DNA of 60,231 nt. Origin: Spirochaetota bacterium. Its GTDB lineage: Bacteria > Spirochaetota > Spirochaetia > Treponematales > Rectinemataceae. The position numbers were made by a program, and so were the translations under genes. The number at the start of each line of letters is the position of its first letter. The stretch's first letter is position 1. The DNA lies in contig JBFLXC010000002.1 of assembly GCA_040757435.1 (NCBI GenBank), forward strand, positions 1 to 60,231, in the 5' to 3' direction. Below are positions 15,815-47,179 of the stretch, in pieces. The notes beneath the pieces are model-generated. The model worked only from the letters and a program-made list of their open reading frames with translations. It ran no database searches and was not told the origin of the DNA.

Positions 15815-17497
15815 ATGGCCACATACGACGACAAGAAAATCATTTACTCCATGTACCGGGTTTCCCGCAAGCATGGCATGAAGCAGGTCCTGAAGGACAT
15901 TTCCATATCCTACTACTACGGCGCCAAGATCGGCGTCATCGGCCTCAACGGCTCGGGGAAGTCCAGCCTCCTTCGCATCATGGCGGGGAAGGACGGGGAT
16001 TACTTGGGGGAGATCAGCCTCGCCCAGGGCTACACCATAGGGTTCCTCGAGCAGGAGCCCCACCTGGAGGACGGAAAGACAGTCCGGGAGGTGGTGAGCG
16101 AGGGCGTGCAGGAGATCGTGGACGCCTTGGCGGAATTCGACGCGGTGAACGAAGCCTTCGGGGATCCGGACGCGGACTTCGACAAGCTCGCCTCGAAGCA
16201 GGCGGCCCTGCAGGAAAAGCTCGACGCCTTCGACGCCTGGAACCTGGATTCCAAGCTGGATTTCGCCATGGAAGCCCTCAGGTGCCCGCCTCCCGACCAG
16301 TTGGTGGACCATCTTTCCGGAGGGGAGCGGAGGCGGGTGGCCCTGTGCAGGCTCCTTCTGAAAAAGCCGGACATCCTTCTCCTGGACGAGCCCACCAACC
16401 ACCTGGACGCAGAGACCATAGCCTGGCTTGAGCGCCACCTGAGGGACTACGAGGGCACGGTGATCGCCGTTACCCACGACCGCTATTTCCTGGACAATGT
16501 CGCCGGCTGGATCCTTGAGCTGGACCGAGGGGAAGGCATCCCCTGGAAGGGCAACTACTCCTCCTGGCTGGACCAGAAGAAGAAGCGCCTGGAGCAGGAG
16601 GAGAAGGGCGAATCCGAAAGGGCCAGGACCCTGGCCAGGGAACTCGACTGGATCGGCATGAGCCCCAAGGGCAGGCACGCCAAGAGCAAGGCCCGCATCG
16701 AGCGCTATGAAAAGCTCCTGGCGGAGGACGGAAAGGAAAAGCTCAAGGAATCCAAGATCGTCATTCCCGCCGGTCCCAGGCTGGGAAAGGTGGTCATCGA
16801 GGCCAAGGCCCTCTCCAAGGCCTACGGGGACAAGCTTTTGTTCGACGGCTTGGACTTCGAAGTTCCCCCCGGGGCGGTGGTTGGCGTCGTGGGTCCCAAC
16901 GGGGCGGGGAAGACAACCCTCCTCAACCTCATCACAGGAAGGGAAAAGCCCGATTCCGGGGAGATCCGCCTGGGAGACACGGTGGTCCTGGCCTACGCGG
17001 ACCAGATGCGCGCCTCCCTGGATCCCGAGAAGACCGTGTGGGAGCAGCTTTCCGACGGCCAGGACATCATCGTCCTTGGGGGCAAGCGGGAAGTGAATTC
17101 CCGCGCCTATTGCTCCTGGTTCAACTTCTCCGGCCAGGACCAGCAGCGCAAGGTGGGTGTCCTTTCCGGCGGGGAGCGCAACCGGCTCAACATGGCCATG
17201 ATGGTGAAGCAGGGGGCCAACGTCCTTCTTCTGGACGAGCCCACCAACGACCTGGACGTGAACACCATGCGCGCCTTGGAGGAAGCCCTGGATTCCTTCG
17301 CCGGCGTCGCCCTTGTGGTGAGCCACGACCGTTGGTTCCTTGACCGGGTCTGCACCCACCTTCTGGCCTTCGAGGACGGGTCGAAGGTGCATTGGTACGA
17401 CGGAAACTGGTCGGAATACGCCCAGTGGCGCCGCGAGACCCTGGGCATCGACGCAGAGAGACCCCACAGGATCGTGTACCGGAAGCTGGAGCGCTGA
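15815..17497 (+). CDS. ettA: Energy-dependent translational throttle protein (ABC-F ATPase)
   Basis: 560 aa. Two ABC cassettes ('GLNGSGKSS', 'LSGGERRRVAL', 'GPNGAGKTT', 'LSGGERNRL') and an EttA-like N-terminus 'YSMYRVSRKHG'. Confidence 0.9.
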   Translation: MATYDDKKIIYSMYRVSRKHGMKQVLKDISISYYYGAKIGVIGLNGSGKSSLLRIMAGKDGDYLGEISLAQGYTIGFLEQEPHLEDGKTVREVVSEGVQEIVDALAEFDAVNEAFGDPDADFDKLASKQAALQEKLDAFDAWNLDSKLDFAMEALRCPPPDQLVDHLSGGERRRVALCRLLLKKPDILLLDEPTNHLDAETIAWLERHLRDYEGTVIAVTHDRYFLDNVAGWILELDRGEGIPWKGNYSSWLDQKKKRLEQEEKGESERARTLARELDWIGMSPKGRHAKSKARIERYEKLLAEDGKEKLKESKIVIPAGPRLGKVVIEAKALSKAYGDKLLFDGLDFEVPPGAVVGVVGPNGAGKTTLLNLITGREKPDSGEIRLGDTVVLAYADQMRASLDPEKTVWEQLSDGQDIIVLGGKREVNSRAYCSWFNFSGQDQQRKVGVLSGGERNRLNMAMMVKQGANVLLLDEPTNDLDVNTMRALEEALDSFAGVALVVSHDRWFLDRVCTHLLAFEDGSKVHWYDGNWSEYAQWRRETLGIDAERPHRIVYRKLER

Positions 17498-17545
17498 GGG
17501 TGTAAAACGCCGAGATCCTTCAGCCCCACCCTGGTGCAAAGCAAG

Positions 17546-17590
17546 CCCCGAGGACGTCAAATTACAGGATGTCCTCGGGGTGTTTTATTT
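17546..17590 (+). terminator. Rho-independent terminator after ettA
   Basis: CCCCGAGGAC (17546-17555) pairs perfectly with GTCCTCGGGG (17571-17580), followed by TGTTTTATTT. Confidence 0.8.
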
Positions 17591-17689
17591 CGACTGCGCC
17601 ATCCACTACTAGGCGCTTTCTCTGATAAATTCAATAGATAAATATAATTGTCAGATTTCCCCAAGAAGAGGCAAGGGAAAAAATGTTGA

Positions 17690-17718
17690 TTGACAACTAT
17701 AAAATAGTCGACTATTAT
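17690..17718 (+). promoter_or_regulatory. Sigma70 promoter with an embedded palindromic operator (TRAP operon)
   Basis: TTGACA, 17 nt, TATTAT. The spacer and -10 contain the perfect palindrome ATAGTCGACTAT (17704-17715). 25/29 identical to the promoter at 27287-27259 on the minus strand. Confidence 0.7.
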
Positions 17719-17784
17719 TAAACTCACCTAATGGAAATCGAGTCTTCCATAGCGAGGTTTTTACTTGTTCGAAAGGAGGAAAGC

Positions 17785-18873
17785 ATGAAAAGGAAAGGAT
17801 TTTTTGTCGCGGCCATAGCCCTTATGCTCTTTGGGCTGGTCTTCGGCGCCTTTGGCCAGGCCAAGCCGGGAAGCGCGAGTTCAGTCATCGCGGAAAGCAA
17901 GTTCAAAGGTGTCAAGGCGGATTACACCTTGAAATTCTCCCTTCAGGAGCCCAGCGCCGACAATCCGGAATTCAACGCCGCCGTAGCCTTCAAGAATTAT
18001 GTGGAATCCCAGACGGGCGGGAAGGTCCAAATCCAGCTTTTCCCCAGCGCTCAGCTCGGGAACGAACGTGAGATAGTCGAGGCCATCAAGGCGGGCAACG
18101 TCGACCTGGGGACTTCCGCGGAAGGTCCTGTGGCCGGATTCGTCCCTGAAGTCTCCGTCCTTTCGATCCCCTACCTCTTCAAAGCCGGTCCCGTTGCATG
18201 GAAGGTGCTGAGCGGCCCCTTCGGCGAAGAGTTGAAGGAATTGATCTGGAAAAAGGGCAAGCTGCGGGTCTTGGCCTTCGGCATGAACGGCTTCAGGAGC
18301 TTTACCAATTCCAGGAAGCCGATCTATAAGCTGGAAGATCTCAAGGGCCTGAAGATCCGGGTCATGCAGGACAAGACCTATGTGGCCATGGTGAACGCCC
18401 TTGGAGCGATGGCGACCCCGATGGCAGGCGGCAACGAGCTGTACAGCGCCCTGCAGCAGAAAGTGGTGGACGGACAGGAAAACCCGCTGGACGGTATCTA
18501 CGCCTACAAGCTGTACGAGCAGCAGCCCTACATCACCGTCGACGCCCACACCTACAGCACGAAATTCCTCTTCGCCGACGACAAGAAGCTTAAGTCCATG
18601 CCCAAGGATTACCAGCTGGTCATCATGAATGGTGCCAGGATCTGGCAGTCCCACCTAGAAGGTCCCAAGGAAACCGCTTCCGTCGCTTCGTTCTTCATCC
18701 TCAAGGACCTGGTGAAGGAAATCTACACCCTGCCGCCCAGCGAGAAGGAAAGATTTAGGGCGGCGGCGCAGCCTGCGGTCATAGACTACATGAAAGGCAC
18801 CATCGGCGGCGAATGGATCGAAAAAGTCCAGGCGGCGGTCAAGCAAGCCGAGTTGGAGATCTACGGCGAATAA
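17785..18873 (+). CDS. dctP: TRAP transporter substrate-binding protein (DctP family)
   Basis: Signal peptide 'MKRKGFFVAAIALMLFGLVFGAFGQA' and DctP-like sequence ('GNEREIVEAIKAGNVDLG', 'KGLKIRVMQ'). Start taken at ATG 17785, preceded by AAGGAGG. Confidence 0.85.
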   Translation: MKRKGFFVAAIALMLFGLVFGAFGQAKPGSASSVIAESKFKGVKADYTLKFSLQEPSADNPEFNAAVAFKNYVESQTGGKVQIQLFPSAQLGNEREIVEAIKAGNVDLGTSAEGPVAGFVPEVSVLSIPYLFKAGPVAWKVLSGPFGEELKELIWKKGKLRVLAFGMNGFRSFTNSRKPIYKLEDLKGLKIRVMQDKTYVAMVNALGAMATPMAGGNELYSALQQKVVDGQENPLDGIYAYKLYEQQPYITVDAHTYSTKFLFADDKKLKSMPKDYQLVIMNGARIWQSHLEGPKETASVASFFILKDLVKEIYTLPPSEKERFRAAAQPAVIDYMKGTIGGEWIEKVQAAVKQAELEIYGE

Positions 18874-18890
18874 GCCTTTTCGATTGAGAT

Positions 18891-18938
18891 GGATAGTGCG
18901 CCGGATTCGTTCGGGTCTGGCGCCCTATCCTTTTTTTT
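18891..18938 (+). terminator. Intra-operon hairpin plus T8 between dctP and dctQ
   Basis: GGATAGTGCGCCGG (18891-18904) pairs 12/14 with CTGGCGCCCTATCC (18917-18930), followed by TTTTTTTT (18931-18938). Confidence 0.7.
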
Positions 18939-18971
18939 CCGGCCTAAGGATCAAATACGGAGGGGAGCGTC

Positions 18972-19472
18972 ATGGTGTGGTTGGCGAAGTTGCTGAGCTC
19001 GATCACTGAAAAAATTCTGTTCGTCCTTCTTTCTGCGATGACAGTCATCGTTTTCTGCCAGGTGCTGTTTCGGTATGTCCTCAACGCCCCCTTGTATTGG
19101 ACTGAAGAAGCCGCCCGCTACCTGATGATCTGGATCGTTTTCCTTGGGGCGAGCATCGGAATCCGCAAAGGGGCGCACCTGGGATTCACATGGTTCGTGG
19201 AGAGGTCCAACTCCAAGATGCGGAGATTTTACGGCATTGTCGCCCACCTTGGGCTTCTAGCCTTTTCCCTGAACATCACGTATTACGGGACCATCGTCAC
19301 CTTTCAGAATTTCGACCAGCTCTCGCCGGGCCTGCAGATGCCTGTGGCGTTTGTCTACGCCTGTCTTCCCGTAGGAGGCTTGTTGGCGATAGTCCAGCTC
19401 ATCCCCATCCTCGCGAAATTGATAGGCGCCCGGGAAGAGGGGGCGAAGAATCCAACGGGAGCGGCATCATGA
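18972..19472 (+). CDS. dctQ: TRAP transporter small permease (DctQ family)
   Basis: 166 aa, 4 TM segments, 'RYVLNAPLYWTEEAARYLMIWIVFLGAS'. Confidence 0.85.
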   Translation: MVWLAKLLSSITEKILFVLLSAMTVIVFCQVLFRYVLNAPLYWTEEAARYLMIWIVFLGASIGIRKGAHLGFTWFVERSNSKMRRFYGIVAHLGLLAFSLNITYYGTIVTFQNFDQLSPGLQMPVAFVYACLPVGGLLAIVQLIPILAKLIGAREEGAKNPTGAAS

Positions 19473-20755
19473 TAGTGTTCATCGTATCCGTAGCCTTCGT
19501 TGTCCTTCTCTTCGTCGGGATGCCCATCTCCTTCACCATTGGGCTCACATCGGTCATAGCGAGCTTCCTCGACAGCGGGATCTCGCCGACGGCCATCACC
19601 ACAAAGCTTGTCACGGGTATCGATACCTTCCCGCTCATGGCCGGCGCGTTCTTCATCCTGGCCGGGGAAGTCATGAGCACGGGGAGCATAACCAGAAGGC
19701 TTGTTGAATTCTCCAAGGTGATAATCGGCAGGGTTCGCGGAGGAACGTCCCTGACCGCCGTAGCCGCCAGCGTGTTCTTCGCGGGGATCAGCGGAGCCGC
19801 TGTGGCGGACCTCGCCGCCGTGGGCTCGATGCTGACTCCTGCCATGAAGCAGGAAGGCTACGACGACGACTTCGCGACGGCGTTGCCGGTAGCCGCCTCG
19901 GTGGTTGGTCCGATCATCCCGCCTAGCACCATCATGGTCATATACGCCATGGCCACGGGAACTTCCATCGGCGCGTTGTTCGTAGCGGGCATAGTGCCTG
20001 GCTTGCTCTTTGGGTTGGTCTTGGGCGGTATGGCGTACTACTACGCCGTGAAGAGAAAGTATCCCCGCAACGACGCCCCCTTCCCAGGCATCAAGGAGTT
20101 CTTCAAGCTTACCAGGAAGGCCATGCTGGTGCTCTTCATGCCCATCATCATCGTAGGCGGAGTGTTGAGCGGTGTCTTCACCGCCACGGAATCGGGCAAC
20201 ATCGCGGCGGTTTACGCGTTGATCCTTTCGATTTTCGTCTACAAGGAATACAAGCTCAAGGATCTTTACAGGATCCTGGTCAACTCCTCGGTCACAATAT
20301 CCATAGCCCTTCTGGTGATTTCCACGGCTTCGAGCCTCGCGTGGATATTCTCCATCATGCAGTTGCCCCAGAAGGCCCTTATCCTCATGACCTCCATATC
20401 GGAAAACCCCTATGTGTTCCTCATGCTCCTCAACGTATTGCTCATGGTGGCAGGCATGTTCCTGGATCCCGGGGCGGCAATAATAATATTGGCCCCCATG
20501 CTGGTTCCTCTCACCCGGTACTTCAACATCGATCCATTGCACATGGCCATCGTCGTCTGCCTCAACCTCACTGTCGGCCTGATAACGCCGCCTGTCGGGG
20601 TATGCCTCTACGTAGGCGCCGGGATAGGCAAGATCTCCATCGAGCGGGTCATCAAGAACGTCACACCCTTCATGATCGCGGAATTCGCCATCGTCCTTCT
20701 CATCACCTACCTTCCCGCGATCGCCACAACGTTGCCCAGGGCCCTGGGCTTTTAG
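19469..20755 (+). CDS. dctM: TRAP transporter large permease (DctM family)
   Basis: The 'MIVFIVSVAFVVLLFVGMPISF' start forms an ATGA overlap with the dctQ stop. About 428 aa, polytopic. The track start at 19190 lies inside dctQ. Confidence 0.88.
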   Translation: MIVFIVSVAFVVLLFVGMPISFTIGLTSVIASFLDSGISPTAITTKLVTGIDTFPLMAGAFFILAGEVMSTGSITRRLVEFSKVIIGRVRGGTSLTAVAASVFFAGISGAAVADLAAVGSMLTPAMKQEGYDDDFATALPVAASVVGPIIPPSTIMVIYAMATGTSIGALFVAGIVPGLLFGLVLGGMAYYYAVKRKYPRNDAPFPGIKEFFKLTRKAMLVLFMPIIIVGGVLSGVFTATESGNIAAVYALILSIFVYKEYKLKDLYRILVNSSVTISIALLVISTASSLAWIFSIMQLPQKALILMTSISENPYVFLMLLNVLLMVAGMFLDPGAAIIILAPMLVPLTRYFNIDPLHMAIVVCLNLTVGLITPPVGVCLYVGAGIGKISIERVIKNVTPFMIAEFAIVLLITYLPAIATTLPRALGF

Positions 20756-20764
20756 GGAGATATA

Positions 20765-21529
20765 ATGGACAGGCTTATAGGAAAGGTGGCGGTCATAACA
20801 GGCGCCGGTTCAGGCATAGGCAGGGCTGCGGCGATCCGCTTCGCCAAGGAAGGAGCCGGGGTGGTGGCGGCTGACATCAATCTCGCCGCCGCACAGGAGA
20901 CCTGCGTCCTTGTCGAGAGAGCAGGGGGCAAGGCCGTGGCCGCCAAGGCGGACGTAAGCAAGTCCCCGGACGTGAAGGCCATGCTGGACATGGCGGTGGA
21001 TCGATTCGGGCGCCTTGATATCCTGTTCAACAACGCGGGCCTTCCCCAGACCAACCAAAAGATCCAGGATTATCCCGAGGAATTGTTCGACCGCATCGTC
21101 GGCGTCAACATCAAGGGAGTCTTCCTGGGCTGCAAGCACGCGGTTCCCATCTTTGAAAGGCAGGGATGGGGCGGGGTGATCATCAACACCGCCTCCATAG
21201 CAGCCTCAAGGCCCAGGCCGGGGCAGAACATCTACGCCGCTTCAAAGGGCATGGTGGTGACCTTGACAAGGGCGTTGGCGGGGGAACTGGCTCCCATGCG
21301 GGTAAGGGTGGTGGCCATCAATCCCGTGGCCGTTGACACCCCGATGTTCTTCGGTTTCATAGGGGACCGGGACGAGGCGGAAGCCAGGAAGGCCTTCACC
21401 GAATCGATTCCCCTGGGCAGGTTCGCCCAGCCCGAGGACATAGCCAACGCGGCCCTCTACCTGGCGTCTGACGAGGCGTCCCTGGTGACGGGGACCATCC
21501 TGGACGTGGACGGCGGCCGCGGCGTCTGA
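20765..21529 (+). CDS. Classical SDR-family oxidoreductase
   Basis: 254 aa. 'TGAGSGIG', 'NNAG', and catalytic 'YAASK'. Confidence 0.85.
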   Translation: MDRLIGKVAVITGAGSGIGRAAAIRFAKEGAGVVAADINLAAAQETCVLVERAGGKAVAAKADVSKSPDVKAMLDMAVDRFGRLDILFNNAGLPQTNQKIQDYPEELFDRIVGVNIKGVFLGCKHAVPIFERQGWGGVIINTASIAASRPRPGQNIYAASKGMVVTLTRALAGELAPMRVRVVAINPVAVDTPMFFGFIGDRDEAEARKAFTESIPLGRFAQPEDIANAALYLASDEASLVTGTILDVDGGRGV

Positions 21530-21541
21530 AAGGAGTGATCC

Positions 21542-21889
21542 ATGGTCCGAGATTCGGAAGCGATGCGCGCCGAGCTGCGTCGCCACATGGGCGGGGGCAA
21601 GGGCGAGGTGGCGGTGATGCACATCCTGGAGAAGGATGAGATGAAGGGCCACGGGAGGCTCTTCGCCCGGAACATCCTCAAGCCCGGAACTTCCATAGGG
21701 ATGCACCAGCATGTGGGGGATTTCGAAGTCTACTACATCGCCAAGGGCCGCGGAGTCTTCAACGACAACGGAACCCTGGTCCCCGTCAAGGAAGGCGACG
21801 TGGGGATCATCGACAATCTCCAGAGCCACGCCATCGAAAACACAGGCAACGAAGACATGGAAGTGATAGCGGTGGTCCTTTACGAATAA
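21542..21889 (+). CDS. Small cupin-domain protein
   Basis: 115 aa. Cupin motif 1 'GTSIGMHQHVGDFEVYYIAKGRG' and motif 2 'GDVGIIDNLQSHAIEN'. Confidence 0.8.
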   Translation: MVRDSEAMRAELRRHMGGGKGEVAVMHILEKDEMKGHGRLFARNILKPGTSIGMHQHVGDFEVYYIAKGRGVFNDNGTLVPVKEGDVGIIDNLQSHAIENTGNEDMEVIAVVLYE

Positions 21890-21915
21890 TTGACGATGCC
21901 CAACAGGAGAGACTC

Positions 21916-23103
21916 ATGGACAAGCAGCAGGCGCAAAAGTTGTACGATTTCATAGACCGGGGCGAGTTGACCGATTTCCTCCAGAAGGCGCTGCAGATAC
22001 CCAGCCACATCGAATATCCGGACCAGGAGAAGGAGATGGGCGAATTCATCGCCCAGAGGATGAGGTCCGAAGGCATCGAGACCCAGATGCAGTTCGTCGA
22101 GGGCAAGAGGGCCAACATCCTGTCGGTCATCAAGGGATCCTCGGGCGGAAAGAGCGTGACCTACAACGGCCATATAGACAGCATCCCTCCCTTCGACATG
22201 GCCGAGCCCTATTCGGGCAGGATCGACGGTGACATGATGTACGGCCGCGGCGCCAGCGACATGAAGAGCGGCATAATCGCCATGGCCTACGCCATGATCG
22301 CCATAAAGAGGTCGGGCTTCGCCCCTCCCGGAGACATAGTGCTCTCCGCGGTGGTGGGCGAGGAGTACGGGAGCTTTGGCGCGACCCATTACGTGAAGCA
22401 CAGTCCTCTCACGGACTACGGGGTGTGCGGCGAGCCCACGGGGCTCAAGATCGCCTCGGCCCAGAAGGGCCTGCACTGGTTCGAGTTCAACGTGCCCGGC
22501 AAGCGCATCCATTCCAGCGTGTCCTCCCAGGGCATAAACGCCTTGAAGCGCCTCAACGCATTGATGAGCCTGATCAACGGGAAACTGGAGCCAGAGCTGA
22601 AGAAACGCACCCATAGGCTCCTGGGCTCCTCGCTGGTCAACCTGGGGAAGGCATGGGGAGGGGAGCAGCCCAACGTTGTCCCCGGGGAAGCCCATCTTCA
22701 GATCGAAAGGCGCTACATCCCCGGCGAGACGTTGGAAAGCGTGATGAAGGAGTTGGACGATATCGTTGCGGAATGCAACGTGGGATACGAGGGATATCCC
22801 GTAACCTACGACCACATGCCCTACAGCCTTCTGGTGAGCAAGACTCCCATGGATGTTCCCGCGGAGCACCCCATCGTGCAGGGCATGCTCAAGGCGGGAC
22901 GGGATGTGCTCGGGTCGGAGCCTGAGATATTCGGCGCTCCCTTCTGGGGCGACGCGGGGGTGCTCAACGATGCTGGCGTCACCACGGTGCTCTTTGGCCC
23001 CGGCGAGGTCGCGGACGCCCATACCGCCACGGAGCATGTGAGCCTGACCAATGTGTACAAGGCGGCCAAGGTCTACGCCGCCCTGCCGTTCTTCCTGGGG
23101 TAG
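21916..23103 (+). CDS. M20-family metallohydrolase (ArgE/DapE/ACY1-like deacylase)
   Basis: 395 aa. 'NGHIDSIP', 'GRGASDMKSG', 'VVGEEYGSFG'. Confidence 0.8.
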   Translation: MDKQQAQKLYDFIDRGELTDFLQKALQIPSHIEYPDQEKEMGEFIAQRMRSEGIETQMQFVEGKRANILSVIKGSSGGKSVTYNGHIDSIPPFDMAEPYSGRIDGDMMYGRGASDMKSGIIAMAYAMIAIKRSGFAPPGDIVLSAVVGEEYGSFGATHYVKHSPLTDYGVCGEPTGLKIASAQKGLHWFEFNVPGKRIHSSVSSQGINALKRLNALMSLINGKLEPELKKRTHRLLGSSLVNLGKAWGGEQPNVVPGEAHLQIERRYIPGETLESVMKELDDIVAECNVGYEGYPVTYDHMPYSLLVSKTPMDVPAEHPIVQGMLKAGRDVLGSEPEIFGAPFWGDAGVLNDAGVTTVLFGPGEVADAHTATEHVSLTNVYKAAKVYAALPFFLG

Positions 23104-23107
23104 GGCG

Positions 23108-23977
23108 ATGGAACGCATAGGCCTTGTGGGCATAGGCGCCATGGGGAGCGGCATAGCGGAAAACCTCCTCAAGGCCGGCCATCCCGTATGGGCCTTCCAT
23201 CGGCCCACGCCATCGGGAAAGGCCGCGGCGGAAAAACTTTCCGCCCTTGGAGCCGAAACTTGCGAAGACTTGGGGGAAGTGTTCTCGAAGGCCGACGTCC
23301 TTGCGATCTGCCTGCCCCGCTCGGAGGACGTGGAGTCCATCATCCTCGGCCCTGGGGGATTGGCGGAGGCCAGGGGCACGACGGTCCGGACGGTTCTGGA
23401 TTTTTCCACCGCCCATCCCGATTCCACGAGGAAACTACACTCCCTTCTCAAGGGCGAGGGCGTGGATTTCCTCGACATTCCCATGACGGGCAGCGTGAGG
23501 GAAGCCAAGGAGGGAACCCTGAACCTGATCGCAGGGGGAGAGGAGGGAGTGTTCCGCCGCGTGGAGCCCCTCCTGCGGAAAATATCGGCCCTTGCGTTGT
23601 ACGCCGGACCCAGCGGATCGGGCAACCTTGTGAAGCTAGCCAACAACCTGCTGGCCATCCTCGACCAGGCGGTGACAGCCCGCATTTCCATCGAACTCGA
23701 CAGGAATGGAATATCGCCTAACGTTTACACCGAATTTTTGGGCAAGAGCAGCGCGAACAGCGGCGGGTTCAGGCTCATGATGTATCGCATAATGTCAGGA
23801 GATTTCGCGAGGAAATTCGAGCTCAGCCTCGCCCTCAAGGACATAGGCTACTGCAGGGATGTCTTTCCCTCGCCCTTCGCCGAGGAATTGCACTCCTTCC
23901 TGACGAAGGCGAGCGAGGCGGGGTATGGGGACAAGGACATAGGAGCCATGTACCATTATCTTAAGGAAAATTCCTAG
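23108..23977 (+). CDS. Beta-hydroxyacid dehydrogenase (HIBADH/6PGDH NAD-binding family)
   Basis: 'IGLVGIGAMGSGIAENL' Rossmann motif and 'GSGNLVKLANN' catalytic-Lys motif. Start taken at ATG 23108, just after the upstream stop. Confidence 0.8.
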   Translation: MERIGLVGIGAMGSGIAENLLKAGHPVWAFHRPTPSGKAAAEKLSALGAETCEDLGEVFSKADVLAICLPRSEDVESIILGPGGLAEARGTTVRTVLDFSTAHPDSTRKLHSLLKGEGVDFLDIPMTGSVREAKEGTLNLIAGGEEGVFRRVEPLLRKISALALYAGPSGSGNLVKLANNLLAILDQAVTARISIELDRNGISPNVYTEFLGKSSANSGGFRLMMYRIMSGDFARKFELSLALKDIGYCRDVFPSPFAEELHSFLTKASEAGYGDKDIGAMYHYLKENS

Positions 23978-24639
23978 GCCTTTTTCTTCCCGTAGGTTTT
24001 CTGGAAATTGACCAGCCCCGCCTTGATGTGCTCCTCCATGAGGGCGCCGTATTTCTCCGGGCTCAGGTCCTTCGTCTCCATGTGGGCCACAAGATCGTCG
24101 TGGGTGTGGAGATCGAAATCCATGTTGATGTTGATGAACTGCAGTCGGTATCGGATATTCTGTATCCTGAGACTCTTGCAGAAATCCGCAAGGATTTCGT
24201 TCTCGCTTTTCTCGGCGAAAAACTCATGGAACTGGTCGTGGGAATCCAAGAAGCTGCGCAGGTCCTTTTTTTCCGCAGCCTCCTTCATGAGCCCGTAGAA
24301 TTTCTTCAATTCCGCCGCCGCGGAAGTCCCGACCCTTTCGTAGGCAAGGCGGGCCGCGAGTCCCTCCACCGTGGTGCGCACCACGAAATGGTTGAGCACG
24401 TCCTGGGTGGATATGGTTTTGACGTAGCAGCCTCTCCGGGGCCTGTATTCCACCAGGCCGACCTTCATCAGGCCTTGCAAGGCCTCCCGAACCGGCGACT
24501 TGCTGACGGAAAATTCTTCCATCACATCAGTCTCTATGAGCTTCTGGCCAACTTCATATTCGCCGGATAAAATCTTCTCCGCGATCTTGTCGAAGAGAAA
24601 CTCGGAAAGGTTCTGGAAACGTTGCTCGCTCTTTTTCAT
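23974..24639 (-). CDS. GntR-family (FadR/FCD subfamily) transcriptional regulator
   Basis: N-terminal wHTH 'GQKLIETDVMEEFSVSKSPVREALQGLMKVGLVEYRPRRG' plus a helical FCD-like C-domain. I prefer ATG 24639 (MKKSEQRF). The track's TTG at 24690 would place an operator-like site inside the coding sequence. Confidence 0.8.
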   Translation of the reverse strand: MKKSEQRFQNLSEFLFDKIAEKILSGEYEVGQKLIETDVMEEFSVSKSPVREALQGLMKVGLVEYRPRRGCYVKTISTQDVLNHFVVRTTVEGLAARLAYERVGTSAAAELKKFYGLMKEAAEKKDLRSFLDSHDQFHEFFAEKSENEILADFCKSLRIQNIRYRLQFININMDFDLHTHDDLVAHMETKDLSPEKYGALMEEHIKAGLVNFQKTYGKKKA

Positions 24640-24678
24640 CCTTTTTGACCTCGGCGCTTTTTCGGTAACTCTTTGCGA

Positions 24679-24690
24679 AGAGTCGACCAA
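24679..24690 (-). promoter_or_regulatory. Degenerate copy of the GTCGAC-centred operator upstream of gntR
   Basis: The minus strand reads TTGGTCGACTCT, a 9/12 match to TTAGTCGACTAA, about 40 nt upstream of the preferred gntR ATG. Confidence 0.35.
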
Positions 24691-24749
24691 TTATACCGAC
24701 CTGTGAAACATCCCGCAATATGGTTTCGCTCCATAAAGTTTCATGAAAT

Positions 24750-24786
24750 AAAAAAAAGGTCCGAACCTTCGCCTCGGTTCGAACCT
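24750..24786 (-). terminator. Rho-independent terminator after the transaldolase-like gene
   Basis: On the minus strand, GGTTCGAACC and GGTTCGGACC form a hairpin with one mismatch/wobble, followed by a run of 8 T (plus-strand A-run 24750-24757). Confidence 0.7.
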
Positions 24787-24796
24787 TTTATCAGCC

Positions 24797-25843
24797 TCAA
24801 GCTTTTCGAAGCGCCTTGATCTCTTCCAGCACCGCCTTCCAGGACTTGAGGAACATGCTCCTGAAAAGCTCCACGGGGCCGAACTCCTCGAACTCGTCCA
24901 GCTCAAGGCCCTTGGGGTCCCAGCCCTTGCGGAAGTCGGGGAGCTTCTCCAGAAGCTCGTCCACCACAAGGGGAGGGACGGGATTGAAGAAGCGATGGAC
25001 CACGTCGGGATTCTGCTCTATGAGGGTGTCCGCCGTGCCCTTCCAGTTGATGGTGACCACCTGGTGCCCTCCCACCATTTCGGTGAAATGCCGCAGCTGC
25101 CGCGCCCCGCCTCCTATTATGACCGGCGCGTAATTCCGGTCGTGGAGGACTTGGTACATTTTTCTCGTGGCGGCCATGCCGGCTTGGCGGACAACGTCGC
25201 CTTCGATATCCACCTTGTTGTCCCGCACATAGTTTTCCAGGTACTCGTCATAGATGCCGGTGATGAAGGAAAGCCATATGGGAGGCCTTTTGTTCGCCTT
25301 CCTGGTGATCGCCTCGTACATCTCGCAGAGCTCTATCCCCTGGGCGATGGACATGATCTCCGTGGCGTTGATGGGATAGCCCTCGGGAATGAGGGTTTCC
25401 ATCGCCTTCAGGCCAGCCTTGGTGCAGGGAATCTTGATCGCGATGTTCTTGCCCAGGGCTCCGTTCTTCCGCGCCTCGTCGATGATCACCTGGGGATCGT
25501 GCTCATGGATGGGATCCCCCTGGATGCTCACGTAGCCGTGCTTTCCATCGCTCTCCTTCCAGAGGGGATAGAAGATTTCCTGGATCGGCTTGACCAGCTT
25601 CCTTTGGAAAATGGCCGCGGCCTCGTCGTCGTCGGAGCTTTCCTTCACAGCCTCGAGGAGGAAGGGGCGGGCGTAGGAACCTTCCTGGAGGTGGGTGAGC
25701 ATCTTGTGGCTGTAGGATGGGTTGTTCGTGCAGCCGAGGGCTCCGCTTTCTATGGCGAGCCTGGCTTCCTCCCTGGTCGGATTGTTGATCCAGAACATGG
25801 TGGGGGAGAGTCTATGGACTCGGTGGAAATATCCGTTTTTCAT
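24797..25843 (-). CDS. Transaldolase-family protein (class I aldolase fold, Schiff-base Lys retained)
   Basis: 348 aa. 'GCTNNPS' (compare D.TTNP), 'IAIKIPCTKAG' (catalytic Lys motif), 'INATEIMS'. Confidence 0.75.
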   Translation of the reverse strand: MKNGYFHRVHRLSPTMFWINNPTREEARLAIESGALGCTNNPSYSHKMLTHLQEGSYARPFLLEAVKESSDDDEAAAIFQRKLVKPIQEIFYPLWKESDGKHGYVSIQGDPIHEHDPQVIIDEARKNGALGKNIAIKIPCTKAGLKAMETLIPEGYPINATEIMSIAQGIELCEMYEAITRKANKRPPIWLSFITGIYDEYLENYVRDNKVDIEGDVVRQAGMAATRKMYQVLHDRNYAPVIIGGGARQLRHFTEMVGGHQVVTINWKGTADTLIEQNPDVVHRFFNPVPPLVVDELLEKLPDFRKGWDPKGLELDEFEEFGPVELFRSMFLKSWKAVLEEIKALRKA

Positions 25844-25861
25844 GAAGGACTCCTTAGGCGG

Positions 25862-27223
25862 CTAGAGTGTTAGGCCCAGCTTGCGTTCCACATCCGAAAG
25901 GGCCTGGTCGAGTATACCCAACAAATCCTCGACCTGTCTCTCGGTGATCACCAAGGGCGGGCCGAGCATGATCATGTTTCCTTCCACCCCGTCCAGGCAG
26001 CCGTAGCAGGGGAATACGATGAGACCCCGGTCCCGGGCGGCCTTCTCCACCATCCTGCTCACGTTGGCTGAGACGGGGAAGGGCGCCTTGGTCTTCTTGT
26101 CCGCCACGCATTCGAAGCCTACCATCAGCCCCTGGCCGCTCACCCTGTCCATCATGGGGTGCTTTTCCGAAAGGCTTTGCAGGCCTTGCTTGAGCTGCCT
26201 CCCACGGGCTTCCGAGTTCTCCGCCAGATGGTTCCGGTCCATGTAGTCTATGGCGGCCACGGCGGCGGCGCAGGATACTATGTTCGCGTTGAGGGTGTGG
26301 CCGGACTTGAAGGCGGAGTTGCTCTTCTCCAACGTTTCCCATATGTCGTCCCGGGCGATGGTGGCGGCGATGGGTATGTATCCCGAGGTCATTCCCTTGG
26401 CCGTTGCGACTATGTCCGGGGTGACGCCCGAGTAGTCGATGCCCCAGGCCTTGCCCGTCCTGCCCCAGCCTGTCATCACTTCGTCGGCGATGAAGAGCAC
26501 GTCGTAGGCGTCGCAGATCTTCCTGATCAGCTCGAAGTAACCCTCCGGGGCGGACACGGCGGCCAGGGCGGCGCCCACCATGGGTTCCGCTATGAAGGCC
26601 GCCACGTTCTCCGGGCCTTGCTGGCGTATCGCGGTCTCCAGGGCACGGGCGCAGAGAAGGCCGCAGGAGGGATGGGATTTTTCATAGTGACAGCGGTAGC
26701 AATAGGCGGGAGGGATGTGGGGGGAGTCGACGAACATGGGCTGGAAAAGCTTACGCCTGGCCGTGAGGCCGGAGAAACCCGCCACGGCGATATTGTTCCC
26801 GTGGAAGGATTGCCAGCGGGAGATGACCTGGAACTTGGAGGGCTTTCCCTTTTCCACCCAATATTGCCTGGCGAGCCTGACGGCGTCGTCGGTGGAGTCG
26901 GTGCCGGTGCAGGAGAACCAGACCCTGCTCGTTCCCTTCAGCGTTCCCGGCGCCTTCTGCACCACCTTTTCCGCCAGCTTGAGGACCGCCTCCCCCGTGA
27001 AGGCGTGGGTGGGGGCGTAGGATATCTTCTTCGCCTGCTCGAACATGGCGGCGTAGACTTCCTCCACGCCGTGCCCCAGGGAGGTGCAGACCGAGGAGCC
27101 CCCCGATCCGTCTATGTATTTGTTGCCTGCGCTGTCGTAAAGATAGATCCCCTCCGCCCGCTCGATGATCGGGAATTCCTTGTTCCAGTCCCGCATGACC
27201 GCGTAATTCTTGTTGTCCGCCAT
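25862..27223 (-). CDS. Class-III (omega-type) PLP aminotransferase
   Basis: About 453 aa. 'FIADEVMTGWGRTG' and PLP-Lys 'ATAKGMTSGY'. ATG 27223 is preceded by GGAGG. Confidence 0.85.
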   Translation of the reverse strand: MADNKNYAVMRDWNKEFPIIERAEGIYLYDSAGNKYIDGSGGSSVCTSLGHGVEEVYAAMFEQAKKISYAPTHAFTGEAVLKLAEKVVQKAPGTLKGTSRVWFSCTGTDSTDDAVRLARQYWVEKGKPSKFQVISRWQSFHGNNIAVAGFSGLTARRKLFQPMFVDSPHIPPAYCYRCHYEKSHPSCGLLCARALETAIRQQGPENVAAFIAEPMVGAALAAVSAPEGYFELIRKICDAYDVLFIADEVMTGWGRTGKAWGIDYSGVTPDIVATAKGMTSGYIPIAATIARDDIWETLEKSNSAFKSGHTLNANIVSCAAAVAAIDYMDRNHLAENSEARGRQLKQGLQSLSEKHPMMDRVSGQGLMVGFECVADKKTKAPFPVSANVSRMVEKAARDRGLIVFPCYGCLDGVEGNMIMLGPPLVITERQVEDLLGILDQALSDVERKLGLTL

Positions 27224-27258
27224 GGATATCCTCCACAATTGCTGGGAATCTTATTTTT

Positions 27259-27287
27259 ATATTAGTCGACTAAAGTATAGTTGTCAA
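27259..27287 (-). promoter_or_regulatory. Sigma70 promoter with an embedded palindromic operator (aminotransferase-transaldolase operon)
   Basis: The minus strand reads TTGACA-ACTATACTTTAGTCGAC-TAATAT. It contains the perfect palindrome TTAGTCGACTAA (27262-27273). 25/29 identical to 17690-17718. Confidence 0.7.
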
Positions 27288-27339
27288 TAAGAAACCTTCA
27301 TTTTTAGCGCCCCCTGCCCAAGCCGCGGCCCCCATCGGC

Positions 27340-27403
27340 CGGCGTGGCGGCCCCCAACGTGCGGCGTGGCGGCCCCCAACGTTCGGCGTGGCGGCCCAAA
27401 CCC
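27340..27403. repeat. 22-bp tandem repeat, about 2.9 copies
   Basis: CGGCGTGGCGGCCCCCAACGTG / CGGCGTGGCGGCCCCCAACGTT / CGGCGTGGCGGCCCAAACCC, located in the divergent intergenic region upstream of the EamA gene. Confidence 0.85.
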
Positions 27404-27445
27404 ACCGCTAGAACCTGGCGCCGCCGTTCTGATAGACTCCGGGAT

Positions 27446-28339
27446 ATGAAATTCGCCGGGAACCTTGTTGGAAGGCGTCACAGGAGCGACCAGGCGGCGG
27501 GCATCCTGGCGATGCTGGGCTGCGCCCTGCTCTGGAGCACCGCCGGCTTGTTCATCAAGCTCATAGACTGGCAACCCTTCGCCCTGGCGGGGATCCGGAG
27601 CTCCGTGGCGGCCGTATTCCTCTGGATCGTCGTCAAGAAGCCGAAATTCACGTTTTCCTTTCCCCAGATGGTTTCCGCCCTGGCCTACGCCTCCACCATG
27701 ATCCTCTTCGTCTTCGCCAACAAGAAGACCACAGCCGCTAACGCCATCCTCCTCCAGTATGGAGCTCCCGTATACGTGGCCATCCTTGGCTCCCTGATAC
27801 TCAAGGAAAAGCCGAGGAAAGAACACGTCCTCGCCCTAGCCGCCGTTGTGGTGGGCATGGTGGTGTTTTTCGTCGAGTCCCTGGGGGGCGGCAGCCTCCT
27901 TGGTGACGCCGTGGCCGCCATAGCCGGCCTCACCTTCGCCACCAACATCGTATTCCTGCGCAAGCAGAAGGATGCCTCGCCCATCGACTCCCTCCTTTTG
28001 GGCCATATCTTCACCGCCCTCATCGCCGGGGCCATCTCCCTATCCTTCCCCGCTCCTCGGTTCAGCTTCAGCTCCATCGCCGCCGTAGCCTCAATGGGAG
28101 TCCTGCAGATCGGCGTCCCGGCCCTCCTTTTCGCCTACGGGATCAAGAGGATCACCGCCCTGGAGAGTATCCTCACCGCGGTGGTGGAACCTCTTTTCAG
28201 CCCCCTCTGGGTATTCCTGGCCACCGGCGAGGCTCCGGGCCTAAGCGCCTTCGCCGGCGGTTCCATAATCCTGGGAGCTGTGGTCAGCTCCTCCGTCGCC
28301 TCGGTGCGGCGCAACGCAAGGACAAGGACGGCGCGGTAA
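27446..28339 (+). CDS. EamA/DMT-family transporter
   Basis: About 297 aa, 10 predicted TM segments, 'LLWSTAGLFIKL'. Start taken at ATG 27446, because the track start runs through the tandem repeat. Confidence 0.75.
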   Translation: MKFAGNLVGRRHRSDQAAGILAMLGCALLWSTAGLFIKLIDWQPFALAGIRSSVAAVFLWIVVKKPKFTFSFPQMVSALAYASTMILFVFANKKTTAANAILLQYGAPVYVAILGSLILKEKPRKEHVLALAAVVVGMVVFFVESLGGGSLLGDAVAAIAGLTFATNIVFLRKQKDASPIDSLLLGHIFTALIAGAISLSFPAPRFSFSSIAAVASMGVLQIGVPALLFAYGIKRITALESILTAVVEPLFSPLWVFLATGEAPGLSAFAGGSIILGAVVSSSVASVRRNARTRTAR

Positions 28340-46526: not shown

Positions 46527-46611
46527 GGAGCGGTGTCCGAGTGGCTTAAGGAGGCGGTCTTGAAAACCGTTGTACCGCGAGGTACCGGGGGTTCGAATCC
46601 CCCCTGCTCCG
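46527..46611 (+). tRNA. tRNA-Ser (anticodon UGA)
   Basis: Class II cloverleaf with a long variable arm. Anticodon loop CTTGAAA, T-loop GGTTCGAATCC. The acceptor stem pairs with one G-U. CCA is not encoded. Confidence 0.85.
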
Positions 46612-46629
46612 TAGCCTTAGGTCCTGCCA

Positions 46630-46717
<88 letters not shown>

Positions 46718-46723
46718 TTTCGC

Positions 46724-46797
46724 GAGGCTATAGCTCAGCTGGATAGAGCTTCAGATTGCGGATCTGAAGGTCGGAGGTTCGAATCCTCTTAGCCTCA
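46724..46797 (+). tRNA. tRNA-Arg (anticodon GCG)
   Basis: 74 nt. Acceptor GAGGCTA/TAGCCTC. The D-arm TAGCTCAGCTGGATAGAGC (with A20) is nearly identical to E. coli tRNA-Arg. Anticodon stem TCAGA/TCTGA, loop TTGCGGA. Confidence 0.8.
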
Positions 46798-46807
46798 TTC
46801 TTCTTGT

Positions 46808-46894
46808 GGAGAGATGCGAGAGCGGCTGAATCGGGCGGTCTCGAAAACCGTTGAACCTTCATTGGTTCCGGGGGTTCGAATCCCCCTCTCTCCG
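46808..46894 (+). tRNA. tRNA-Ser (anticodon CGA)
   Basis: Acceptor GGAGAGA/TCTCTCC, anticodon loop CTCGAAA, long variable arm. Confidence 0.85.
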
Positions 46895-46963
46895 CCTAGC
46901 CGCCTTCTGCCTTCGCTCCCGGAAGAAAGATGCGGTTTTTGTCTTCGTTTCGTTTTTCGCCTT

Positions 46964-47050
46964 GGAGAGATGACCGAGCGGCCGAAGGTGCGCGATTGGA
47001 AGTCGCGTGTATCCGTAAGGGTACCGAGGGTTCAAATCCCTCTCTCTCCG
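46964..47050 (+). tRNA. tRNA-Ser (anticodon GGA)
   Basis: Acceptor GGAGAGA/TCTCTCC, anticodon stem CGCGA/TCGCG, loop TTGGAAG, long variable arm, T-loop GGTTCAAATCC. Confidence 0.8.
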
Positions 47051-47056
47051 TAGCAT

Positions 47057-47179
47057 CCTGGAGCGCAAGAAGCCAGGCACTGTGCTCGTAACCGCCGCGG
47101 AACCCCGCCAGGTCCGGAAGGAAGCAACGGTACGCGGAAGGTGCGGTGCCGCAGAGCGCCTGGCTTCTTGCGCTCCAAG
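47057..47179 (+). ncRNA. ffs: Small (4.5S-type) signal recognition particle RNA
   Basis: A 22-bp closing helix (47057-47078 pairs 21/22 with 47158-47179). The conserved domain IV core CCAGGTCCGGAAGGAAGCA lies at about 47108-47126. It sits directly upstream of dnaX, as in many bacteria. Confidence 0.85.

Follow-up and report, generated by a model that had tools for sequence, protein, structure and literature searches.

The closest described relatives of the system reported here are the local repressors of the FadR/FCD type within the GntR family, such as ExuR/UxuR, LldR, PdhR, GlcC and DgoR (Suvorova et al. 2015, PMC4494728). Operators of the FadR subfamily follow the consensus NyGTM-N0-1-KACNy, most commonly with TKGT/ACMA boxes and 3 nt between GT and AC, and weaker extra half-sites located 7-12 nt from the palindrome centre are frequent but not obligatory (PMC4494728). 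In FadR of Escherichia coli, a dimer binds with each monomer reading one GT...AC half-site, and a ligand of the C-terminal domain releases binding (PMC4494728, PMC7797058). Another case is Atu1419 of Agrobacterium fabrum (a VanR group FCD GntR; PDB 6Z74), for which identical 10-bp palindromes are spread over several promoters of a single cluster, including one placed between the -35 and -10 boxes; a degenerate second site (8/10) is also used, and the FCD metal site, composed of three His and an Asn/Asp, contacts the ligand (PMC7797058). Here we analyse a 60,231-nt stretch of contig JBFLXC010000002.1 from a Spirochaetota bacterium (hereafter the window), in which two near-identical 29-nt promoter-operator cassettes, 9.5 kb apart, head a dctP operon and an aminotransferase operon that flank the gene of an FCD-type GntR regulator.

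On the features tested, the system appears to belong to the FadR/FCD-subfamily GntR repressors of local catabolic operons, and the regulatory logic suggested by its sequence is textbook. It shares with the known local repressors the winged helix-turn-helix plus FCD architecture, the palindromic GT...AC operator, the position of the regulator beside its targets and a weaker extra half-site, and carboxylate-type effectors like theirs would likewise be expected for the window GntR. However, the whole promoter (-35 box, auxiliary box, operator and -10 box) is here a fixed 29-nt unit in eight lineages, and the host phylum, represented by uncultured spirochaetes, is absent from the taxon table of the FadR/FCD survey (PMC4494728). 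The likeness to Atu1419 consists of repeated 10-bp palindromes in one local cluster, one palindrome between the hexamers, a degenerate second site, and conserved residues in the window GntR (D135, H138, H180 and H204) that may correspond to the metal site. The palindromes themselves are different, ATGTATACAT in Atu1419 and TAGTCGACTA here, and the similarity between the two proteins (51 bits) is confined to the N-terminal part. Moreover, Atu1419 is a tetramer looping DNA between sites 109-190 bp apart; there is no sign of a tetramer or of looping here, and the window cassettes are 9.5 kb apart. FadR of E. coli is the founding member of the same subfamily but is only distantly related to the window GntR; acyl-CoA is its ligand, it lacks a metal site, and it acts as an activator of fab genes as well.

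The first-pass annotation of the window had described the two cassettes as 25/29 identical, and a base-by-base count gives the same result, with four differences, at the positions it had assigned (Table 1). Both cassettes have the sigma70 layout TTGACA-N17-TAnnAT, and in a consensus scan of 17300-27600 no other site resembles a sigma70 promoter as closely (11/12 and 10/12 matches, spacer 17 nt). In both cassettes the core palindrome TAGTCGACTA takes up the final eight bases of the spacer plus the first two of the -10 box, as had been proposed, and thus overlaps core promoter elements as expected of a promoter-occluding repressor site. The 12-bp palindromes ATAGTCGACTAT and TTAGTCGACTAA reported around this shared core do exist in the window, but the 12-bp form is not conserved in relatives, where only the 10-bp core is retained. 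The abrupt end of similarity on both sides is also borne out: in an unbiased repeat search the top inverted repeat of 17400-27600 is 34 nt long (85%; arms 17689-17722 and 27255-27288), and the cassette similarity therefore ends within about 3-4 nt of the 29-mer.

Chance seems a poor explanation for these copies. With at most one mismatch the 10-bp core occurs only at the two cassette sites of the window (0.37 expected), TTGACAACT is likewise confined to them, and the 29-mer at up to three mismatches occurs 0 times in 100 shuffles. Among the core matches with two mismatches, a site at the gntR promoter is non-coding, as are both exact copies, while ten others are intragenic; the remaining one (25855-25864) is situated in the short intergenic gap between the aminotransferase and transaldolase-like (TAL-like) genes, with mismatches that break the GTCGAC core. 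No further regulon members were found in the 60-kb window, where the other core matches with up to two mismatches are intragenic or without a GTCGAC centre.

Conservation upstream of orthologous operons had been named as a check on the first-pass proposal. Loci were fetched by protein alignment, with no assumption about the DNA motif, and more were added via exact-protein look-up; the regulon proteins and the core motif were then mapped onto the fetched loci. In eight lineages, between which GntR identity is 65-87%, each transcription unit of the orthologous gene set begins with the cassette. Loci L003, L160 and L163 have the window layout, with one cassette before dctP and one before the aminotransferase gene. 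Three cassettes are found in L002, one for each of the units M20-HIBADH-gntR, aminotransferase-TAL and dctPQM-SDR-cupin (gene families as in Table 1), and in L159 and L165 as well; in these three loci M20 and HIBADH belong to a unit apart, headed by a cassette of its own. The divergent M20/gntR region holds one cassette in L081 and in L159. Taken together, cassettes are found upstream of dctP in L002, L003, L159, L160, L163, L164 and L165, and upstream of the aminotransferase gene in L002, L003, L080, L081, L159, L160, L161 and L163. Probably L165 also possesses a cassette before an aminotransferase gene, the downstream gene being cut by the contig end and unannotated.

Across 22 non-redundant cassettes, the information content per column is 2.00 bits in the -35 hexamer, 1.85 bits in the ACT that follows it, 1.92 bits in the 10-bp core and 1.49 bits in the remainder of the -10 box, compared to 0.89 bits in the six inner spacer positions and 0.27 bits in the flanks (35 nt upstream and 46 nt downstream). 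TTGACA and the 17-nt spacer are present in 22/22 cassettes and TAnnAT in all but one (TATTGT). The core tolerates variation at position 2 only (A/G), in the half that does not overlap the -10 box. Variants of the spacer are common to orthologous cassettes, for instance ACTATCATT before dctP in four lineages; the cassette copies are therefore old and maintained by selection rather than being recent duplicates.

The nearly invariant ACT beside the -35 box had been missed by the first reading of the sequence. It is found as ACT(A) in 20 of the 22 cassettes, with the centre of the box 12 nt from the palindrome centre, which agrees with the extra half-sites described for the FadR subfamily, and it is probably an auxiliary half-site. 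We also observed that the -35 hexamer with its extension, TTGACAACTA (17690-17699 and 27287-27278), equals the core at 7/10 positions and might serve as a further binding site, of low affinity, that overlaps the -35 box.

Within the loci compared, the cassette is exclusively associated with this gene set and regulator clade. A strict 18-base pattern, TTGACAACT-N6-TNGTCGACTA, has 21 occurrences in 13 orthologous loci and 0 in 152 other loci, and the exact core is found 10 times in the 139 kb from orthologous loci compared to twice in 1.74 Mb of unrelated loci, an enrichment of about 60-fold. Matches to the 18-base pattern in three viral contigs of IMG/VR (L166:5923-5947, L167:7015-7039 and L168:5490-5514) were rejected as chance occurrences, being in coding-like context with no -10 box after them; two of these contigs represent the same phage, and no regulon genes are near any of the three.

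The gene between the two operons does encode a FadR/FCD-type GntR protein, as the first-pass annotation had it. Pfam identifies both the GntR domain (PF00392, residues 12-73, E = 1.5e-16, 60 bits against a cut-off of 27) and the FCD effector domain (PF07729, residues 85-206, E = 3.5e-16, 60 bits against a cut-off of 24.3), while NCBIfam gives no equivalog, the best match being phnR_burk with 99 bits against a cut-off of 271. Approximately 23 clear orthologues were recovered (49-82% identity), one of them from a Spirochaetes metagenome-assembled genome (MAG), and their length of 219-222 aa supports the ATG at 24639. In the orthologue alignment D135, H180 and H204 are invariant and position 138 is His in 18/23 sequences; by sequence alignment alone, these four positions correspond to Asp/His positions of the solved FCD proteins 7xp0 and 3fms. 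An attempt to link regulator clades to motif variants through the recognition helix was uninformative, as the helix VSKSPVREA is identical throughout but was itself a fetch pattern.

Paralogous regulators (37-50% identity; L005-L010, L087-L089 and L164) have AGTCGA-type sites beside their own TRAP/aminotransferase operons. Each site is either a complete AGTCGACT or differs from it at one base, and it is often accompanied by a second, partial repeat. Where the upstream promoter is readable (L006, L008, L087 and L164), the site is located at the ribosome-binding site, downstream of an unrelated TTGACA promoter, which in L008 and L164 reads TTGACA-N17-TATGAT. The motif therefore follows the regulator clade and not one particular promoter. 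Within one such clade (40-45% identity; L008:3900-12000, also L006, L009, L087, L088 and L164:1-1700), the cluster comprises a TRAP transporter, a glutamate-1-semialdehyde-aminomutase-like aminotransferase, an amidohydrolase and a nickel-pincer (LarA-type) isomerase, and the site of the L008 type, CAGTCGACTA-N6-ATCGAT, is situated between the TTGACA-N17-TATGAT promoter and the dctP ribosome-binding site.

A degenerate copy of the palindrome upstream of gntR had been taken to suggest autoregulation. The copy, TTGGTCGACTCT, is present at 24690-24679 (- strand), ending 40 nt before the ATG; taken by itself the site is weak, and backing for autoregulation is confined to the window and L001. It scores 9.9 with a position weight matrix (PWM) built from the cassettes, compared to 19.2 for the consensus, and five more sites of the same score are found in the window, all intragenic. 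The case for it is that it lies directly after TATAAT, and that L001 shares the promoter layout with a better copy at the same place (TATAAT-TAGTCGACTT). In L002, L080 and L091, gntR follows a cassette-driven M20-HIBADH unit and also has its own promoter without a site; in L081 and L159 it is divergent from a cassette, and in L082, L164 and L165 an exact core is found about 180 nt upstream of it. Negative autoregulation of gntR hence seems plausible as a lineage-specific trait of the window and L001.

We are close to certain that the cassette is a functional promoter-operator unit. The first-pass proposal that it ties both operons to the FCD-type GntR encoded between them is supported by the conservation of the cassette, the enrichment of the core and the FadR-type form of the core, and we infer that it is this GntR that binds. 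Most probably the adjacent GntR represses both promoters by occlusion and is released by an effector, although uncertainty attaches to which protein binds and to whether its effect is negative. The adjacent GntR is favoured as binder because it is the sole linked regulator, the core is of the FadR type, paralogues have related sites, and sites occur at the gntR promoter in the window and L001. The cassette would then be a near-consensus sigma70 promoter with a built-in repressor operator, in which the palindrome T(A/G)GTCGACTA covers about -20 to -11 and the ACT after the -35 hexamer would act as auxiliary half-site. A GntR dimer would bind the palindrome and block RNA polymerase at both promoters, which should be strong without bound protein because of the optimal 17-nt spacer and perfect TTGACA throughout the cassettes. 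A carboxylate, be it the substrate taken up through the TRAP transporter or an intermediate made from that substrate, might act as effector, binding the FCD domain (probably at a putative Asp/His metal site) and releasing the repressor, so that the uptake genes dctPQM would be switched on together with the SDR, cupin, M20, HIBADH-like, aminotransferase and TAL-like genes. The weaker site just downstream of the gntR -10 box would probably give negative autoregulation in this lineage.

Several observations weigh against repression by the adjacent GntR. The helix VSKSPVREA is also present in more distant homologues whose loci show no core enrichment, and it thus gives no account of specificity. 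The gntR site is statistically weak, as equal-or-better sites occur at 0.047 per kb in control DNA, and it is missing at that position in most other lineages. The boxes are TAGT/ACTA in 17/22 and TGGT/ACTA in 5/22 cassettes, with 2 nt between GT and AC, and thus deviate from the commonest TKGT/ACMA form. Finally, a MarR-type regulator of an unrelated bacterium protects DNA with the same 10-mer, and the sequence is accordingly not exclusive to GntR proteins.

The last of these points bears on the possibility that the palindrome is a real operator bound by another factor encoded elsewhere (a MarR-type, other winged-helix or global regulator), with the adjacent GntR recognising something else. 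The protein in question, AesR of Corynebacterium glutamicum, protects DNA containing CATAGTCGACTA, two adjacent inverted repeats, and the window cassette with ACTAT-AAA-ATAGT followed by CGACTA looks similar. However, this symmetry is not conserved among the cassettes, which retain only ACT-N7-AGT. The core, moreover, fits the FadR-subfamily consensus: as the first-pass annotation had noted a resemblance to FadR/GntR half-sites, GT-C-G-AC agrees with NyGTM-N0-1-KACNy (PMC4494728), and by sequence the core can be classed as a variant within this broader consensus. In addition, no regulator gene other than gntR remains linked to the cassettes across all the rearrangements, paralogous GntR proteins carry related sites by their own operons in different promoter contexts, and a site is found at the gntR promoter itself in the window and L001. 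We therefore regard a foreign binder as unlikely.

Near-consensus -35 and -10 hexamers would be conserved anyway, and the shared sequence could thus be a strong promoter inherited by duplication, in which the palindrome reflects promoter or spacer architecture, or is a passenger, and not an operator. This is very improbable considering that eight spacer positions are invariant while the neighbouring six vary, although spacer bases are normally free. The core also occurs outside this layout, after the gntR -10 box and in the leaders of paralogous operons, and the orthologous cassettes have diverged at the variable positions, so the core has long been held by selection. There is a similarly slim chance that the palindrome-bound protein is an activator, MerR-like between the hexamers, or a dual regulator. 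MerR-type activators do bind between -35 and -10, and some proteins of the FadR subfamily, FadR included, can activate. Nevertheless, the MerR type needs a spacer of 19-20 nt, which is at odds with the 17 nt and perfect TTGACA of the cassettes; the site overlaps the -10 box, and the sites of gntR and of the paralogous clade are downstream of the -10 box, which are repressor positions. That the cassettes derive from a small mobile or repetitive element, such as a miniature inverted-repeat transposable element (MITE) or a repetitive extragenic palindromic (REP) sequence, and came to lie beside these genes by chance is hardly credible: short, near-identical palindrome-bearing sequences do recur in several places, but only at the 5' ends of regulon units, always in sense orientation and at promoter distance, with none in the 152 other loci, only the chance viral matches in coding context elsewhere, no flanking repeats, and similarity ending within 34 nt.

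The features of the preferred reading, in which the intervening GntR represses both cassette promoters, are listed in Table 1 together with the genes of the two operons.

Table 1. Positions of the cassettes, the genes they head and the proposed regulator in the window
Feature	Position	Strand	Details
dctP-operon cassette	17690..17718	+	reads TTGACAACTATAAAATAGTCGACTATTAT
Parts of the dctP-operon cassette		+	-35 TTGACA 17690-17695; ACT(A) 17696-17699; core TAGTCGACTA 17705-17714; -10 TATTAT 17713-17718
dctP	17785-18873	+	Pfam DctP
dctQ	18972-19472	+	Pfam DctQ
dctM	19469-20755	+	Pfam DctM
Short-chain dehydrogenase/reductase (SDR)	20765-21529	+	
Cupin	21542-21889	+	
M20 ArgE/DapE-type deacylase	21916-23103	+	passes ArgE/DapE deacylase model
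3-Hydroxyisobutyrate dehydrogenase (HIBADH)-like dehydrogenase	23108-23977	+	
gntR: GntR regulator, FadR/FCD subfamily, 221 aa, proposed repressor	23974-24639	-	ATG at 24639
Putative gntR promoter with weak operator	24680..24718	-	TTGCGG 24718-24713, 17-nt spacer, TATAAT 24695-24690, TGGTCGACTC 24689-24680 (about -6 to +4)
Intrinsic-terminator-like hairpin, 14 pairs then T8	24789-24754	-	between TAL-like gene and gntR
Divergent TAL/FSA-family protein, 348 aa	24797-25843	-	second gene of aminotransferase operon; Pfam TAL_FSA 3.6e-25
Class-III (omega-type) aminotransferase, 453 aa	25862-27223	-	first gene of second operon; Pfam Aminotran_3 7.8e-87
Aminotransferase-operon cassette	27287-27259	-	reads TTGACAACTATACTTTAGTCGACTAATAT
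Parts of the aminotransferase-operon cassette		-	-35 TTGACA 27287-27282; ACT(A) 27281-27278; core TAGTCGACTA 27272-27263; -10 TAATAT 27264-27259

The plus-strand operon is compact, with gaps of 5-27 nt except for 99 nt after dctP and a 4-nt dctQ/dctM overlap, and its three transporter genes match the Pfam DctP, DctQ and DctM models with E-values of 7e-74 to 7e-108. Inside the 99-nt gap, an 11-pair hairpin with seven GC pairs (18898-18923) may act as an attenuator or stabiliser within the operon, giving more binding protein relative to the membrane subunits. In the approximately 65-nt dctP leader an RNA element was considered and rejected, because RNAalifold on seven orthologous leaders gave only four pairs at -0.08 kcal/mol. 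An Rfam scan of the window identified tRNAs and the signal recognition particle (SRP) RNA only, away from this leader; five tRNA genes followed by a small SRP RNA gene occupy 46527-47168 and are unrelated to the cassettes.

At the other end of the operon, the HIBADH-like gene and gntR are convergent and their stop codons overlap by 4 nt (23974-23977), while in other lineages the corresponding gap is 26-89 nt. We found no terminator-like site at this junction, and transcription of the dct operon, once induced, would continue into gntR in antisense; this could make induction sharper. On the minus strand, the hairpin listed in Table 1 separates the aminotransferase-TAL unit from gntR. The TAL-like gene is always directly downstream of the aminotransferase gene in orthologous loci. 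Just upstream of it, inside the 3' end of the aminotransferase gene, a core copy with two mismatches, TGGTCGAGTA (25905-25914), abuts a promoter-like GAGACA-N18-TATACT (25940-25911, - strand), adjacent to a deletion endpoint of L001 (25921); the segment 25905-25940 could be an internal promoter, or due to chance. Between the aminotransferase cassette and a divergent gene for an EamA-type transporter there is a GC-rich tandem repeat (27325-27397; 22 nt x 3.3 copies, 92% matches), in a segment that is unaligned with the syntenic L001.

L001 is the closest relative of the window, from the Spirochaetes MAG X1_MetaBAT.41, with about 80% nucleotide identity (L001:8600-11100 against window 17493-27294). 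It lacks the body of the aminotransferase gene (window 25921-27184) and the whole dctP-to-HIBADH operon with its cassette (17493-23933), but retains gntR, the site at the gntR promoter and one cassette, which precedes TAL; conservation is highest in the cassette segment (88%). This looks like regulon decay in L001, or gain in the lineage of the window.

The substrate of the regulated genes can be approached only by homology. Among proteins of solved structure, those closest to DctP are binders of sugar acids or sialic acid. The TAL-like protein is highly divergent, the best of its solved transaldolase relatives scoring 44 bits, and contains IAIKIPCT, which we take to be the Schiff-base lysine motif of the TAL family; the SF-transaldolase structure 8bc3 is among its weak matches. 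For the HIBADH-like enzyme the closest matches are tartronate-semialdehyde, sulfolactaldehyde and L-threonate dehydrogenases, none of which reaches its cut-off, and the sulfolactaldehyde 3-reductase model matches it at 125 bits, far below the family cut-off. Both GntR clades combine uptake, deacylation and transamination, which suggests N-acylated amino (sugar) acids as substrates.

The sulfo-TAL clusters for sulfoquinovose combine a TAL-family enzyme with a HIBADH-family aldehyde reductase, and, when the regulated genes alone are compared, the same pairing is seen in the window. However, none of the scores comes near the family cut-offs, and nothing points to a sulfonate substrate. The window also adds an M20 deacylase, an aminotransferase and a TRAP transporter, the last with carboxylate sugars as ligands of its closest structurally solved relatives. 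At the level of family homology, every gene would find a role in a carboxylate analogue of the sulfo-TAL pathway, which is speculation on our part. In such a scheme N-acetyl-hexosaminuronate would be taken up by the TRAP transporter, de-N-acylated by the M20 enzyme and reduced by the SDR; the class-III aminotransferase would transaminate C2 to give a keto-uronate, which the TAL-family protein would cleave into a C3 ketol unit and tartronate semialdehyde, and the HIBADH-like enzyme would reduce the semialdehyde. A literature search on the 10-mer and the gene combination gave no description of the regulon or the pathway, and the sole regulator match was the unrelated AesR. That the locus encodes an undescribed pathway for an N-acylated amino (sugar) acid in uncultured Treponemataceae-like spirochaetes, together with a possible three-box operator (ACT box and palindrome) covering both hexamers, is accordingly a tentative suggestion with a modest chance of being right.

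The understanding of GntR regulation is left unchanged by these results, and it is the regulated pathway and the portable cassette that are mildly interesting. The cassette joins seven enzyme and transport genes and the aminotransferase/TAL pair into one functional unit, which offers a starting point for finding the substrate. The locus is also an example of modular evolution, in which the modules dctPQM-SDR-cupin, M20-HIBADH and aminotransferase-TAL were reshuffled, each keeping or gaining a cassette. The signature of 18-25 nt, TTGACAACT-N6-TNGTCGACTA, is a specific handle for finding regulon members in MAGs of uncultivable spirochaetes, and in spirochaete genetics the combination of a strong consensus promoter and a single tight operator could be put to use as a switch.

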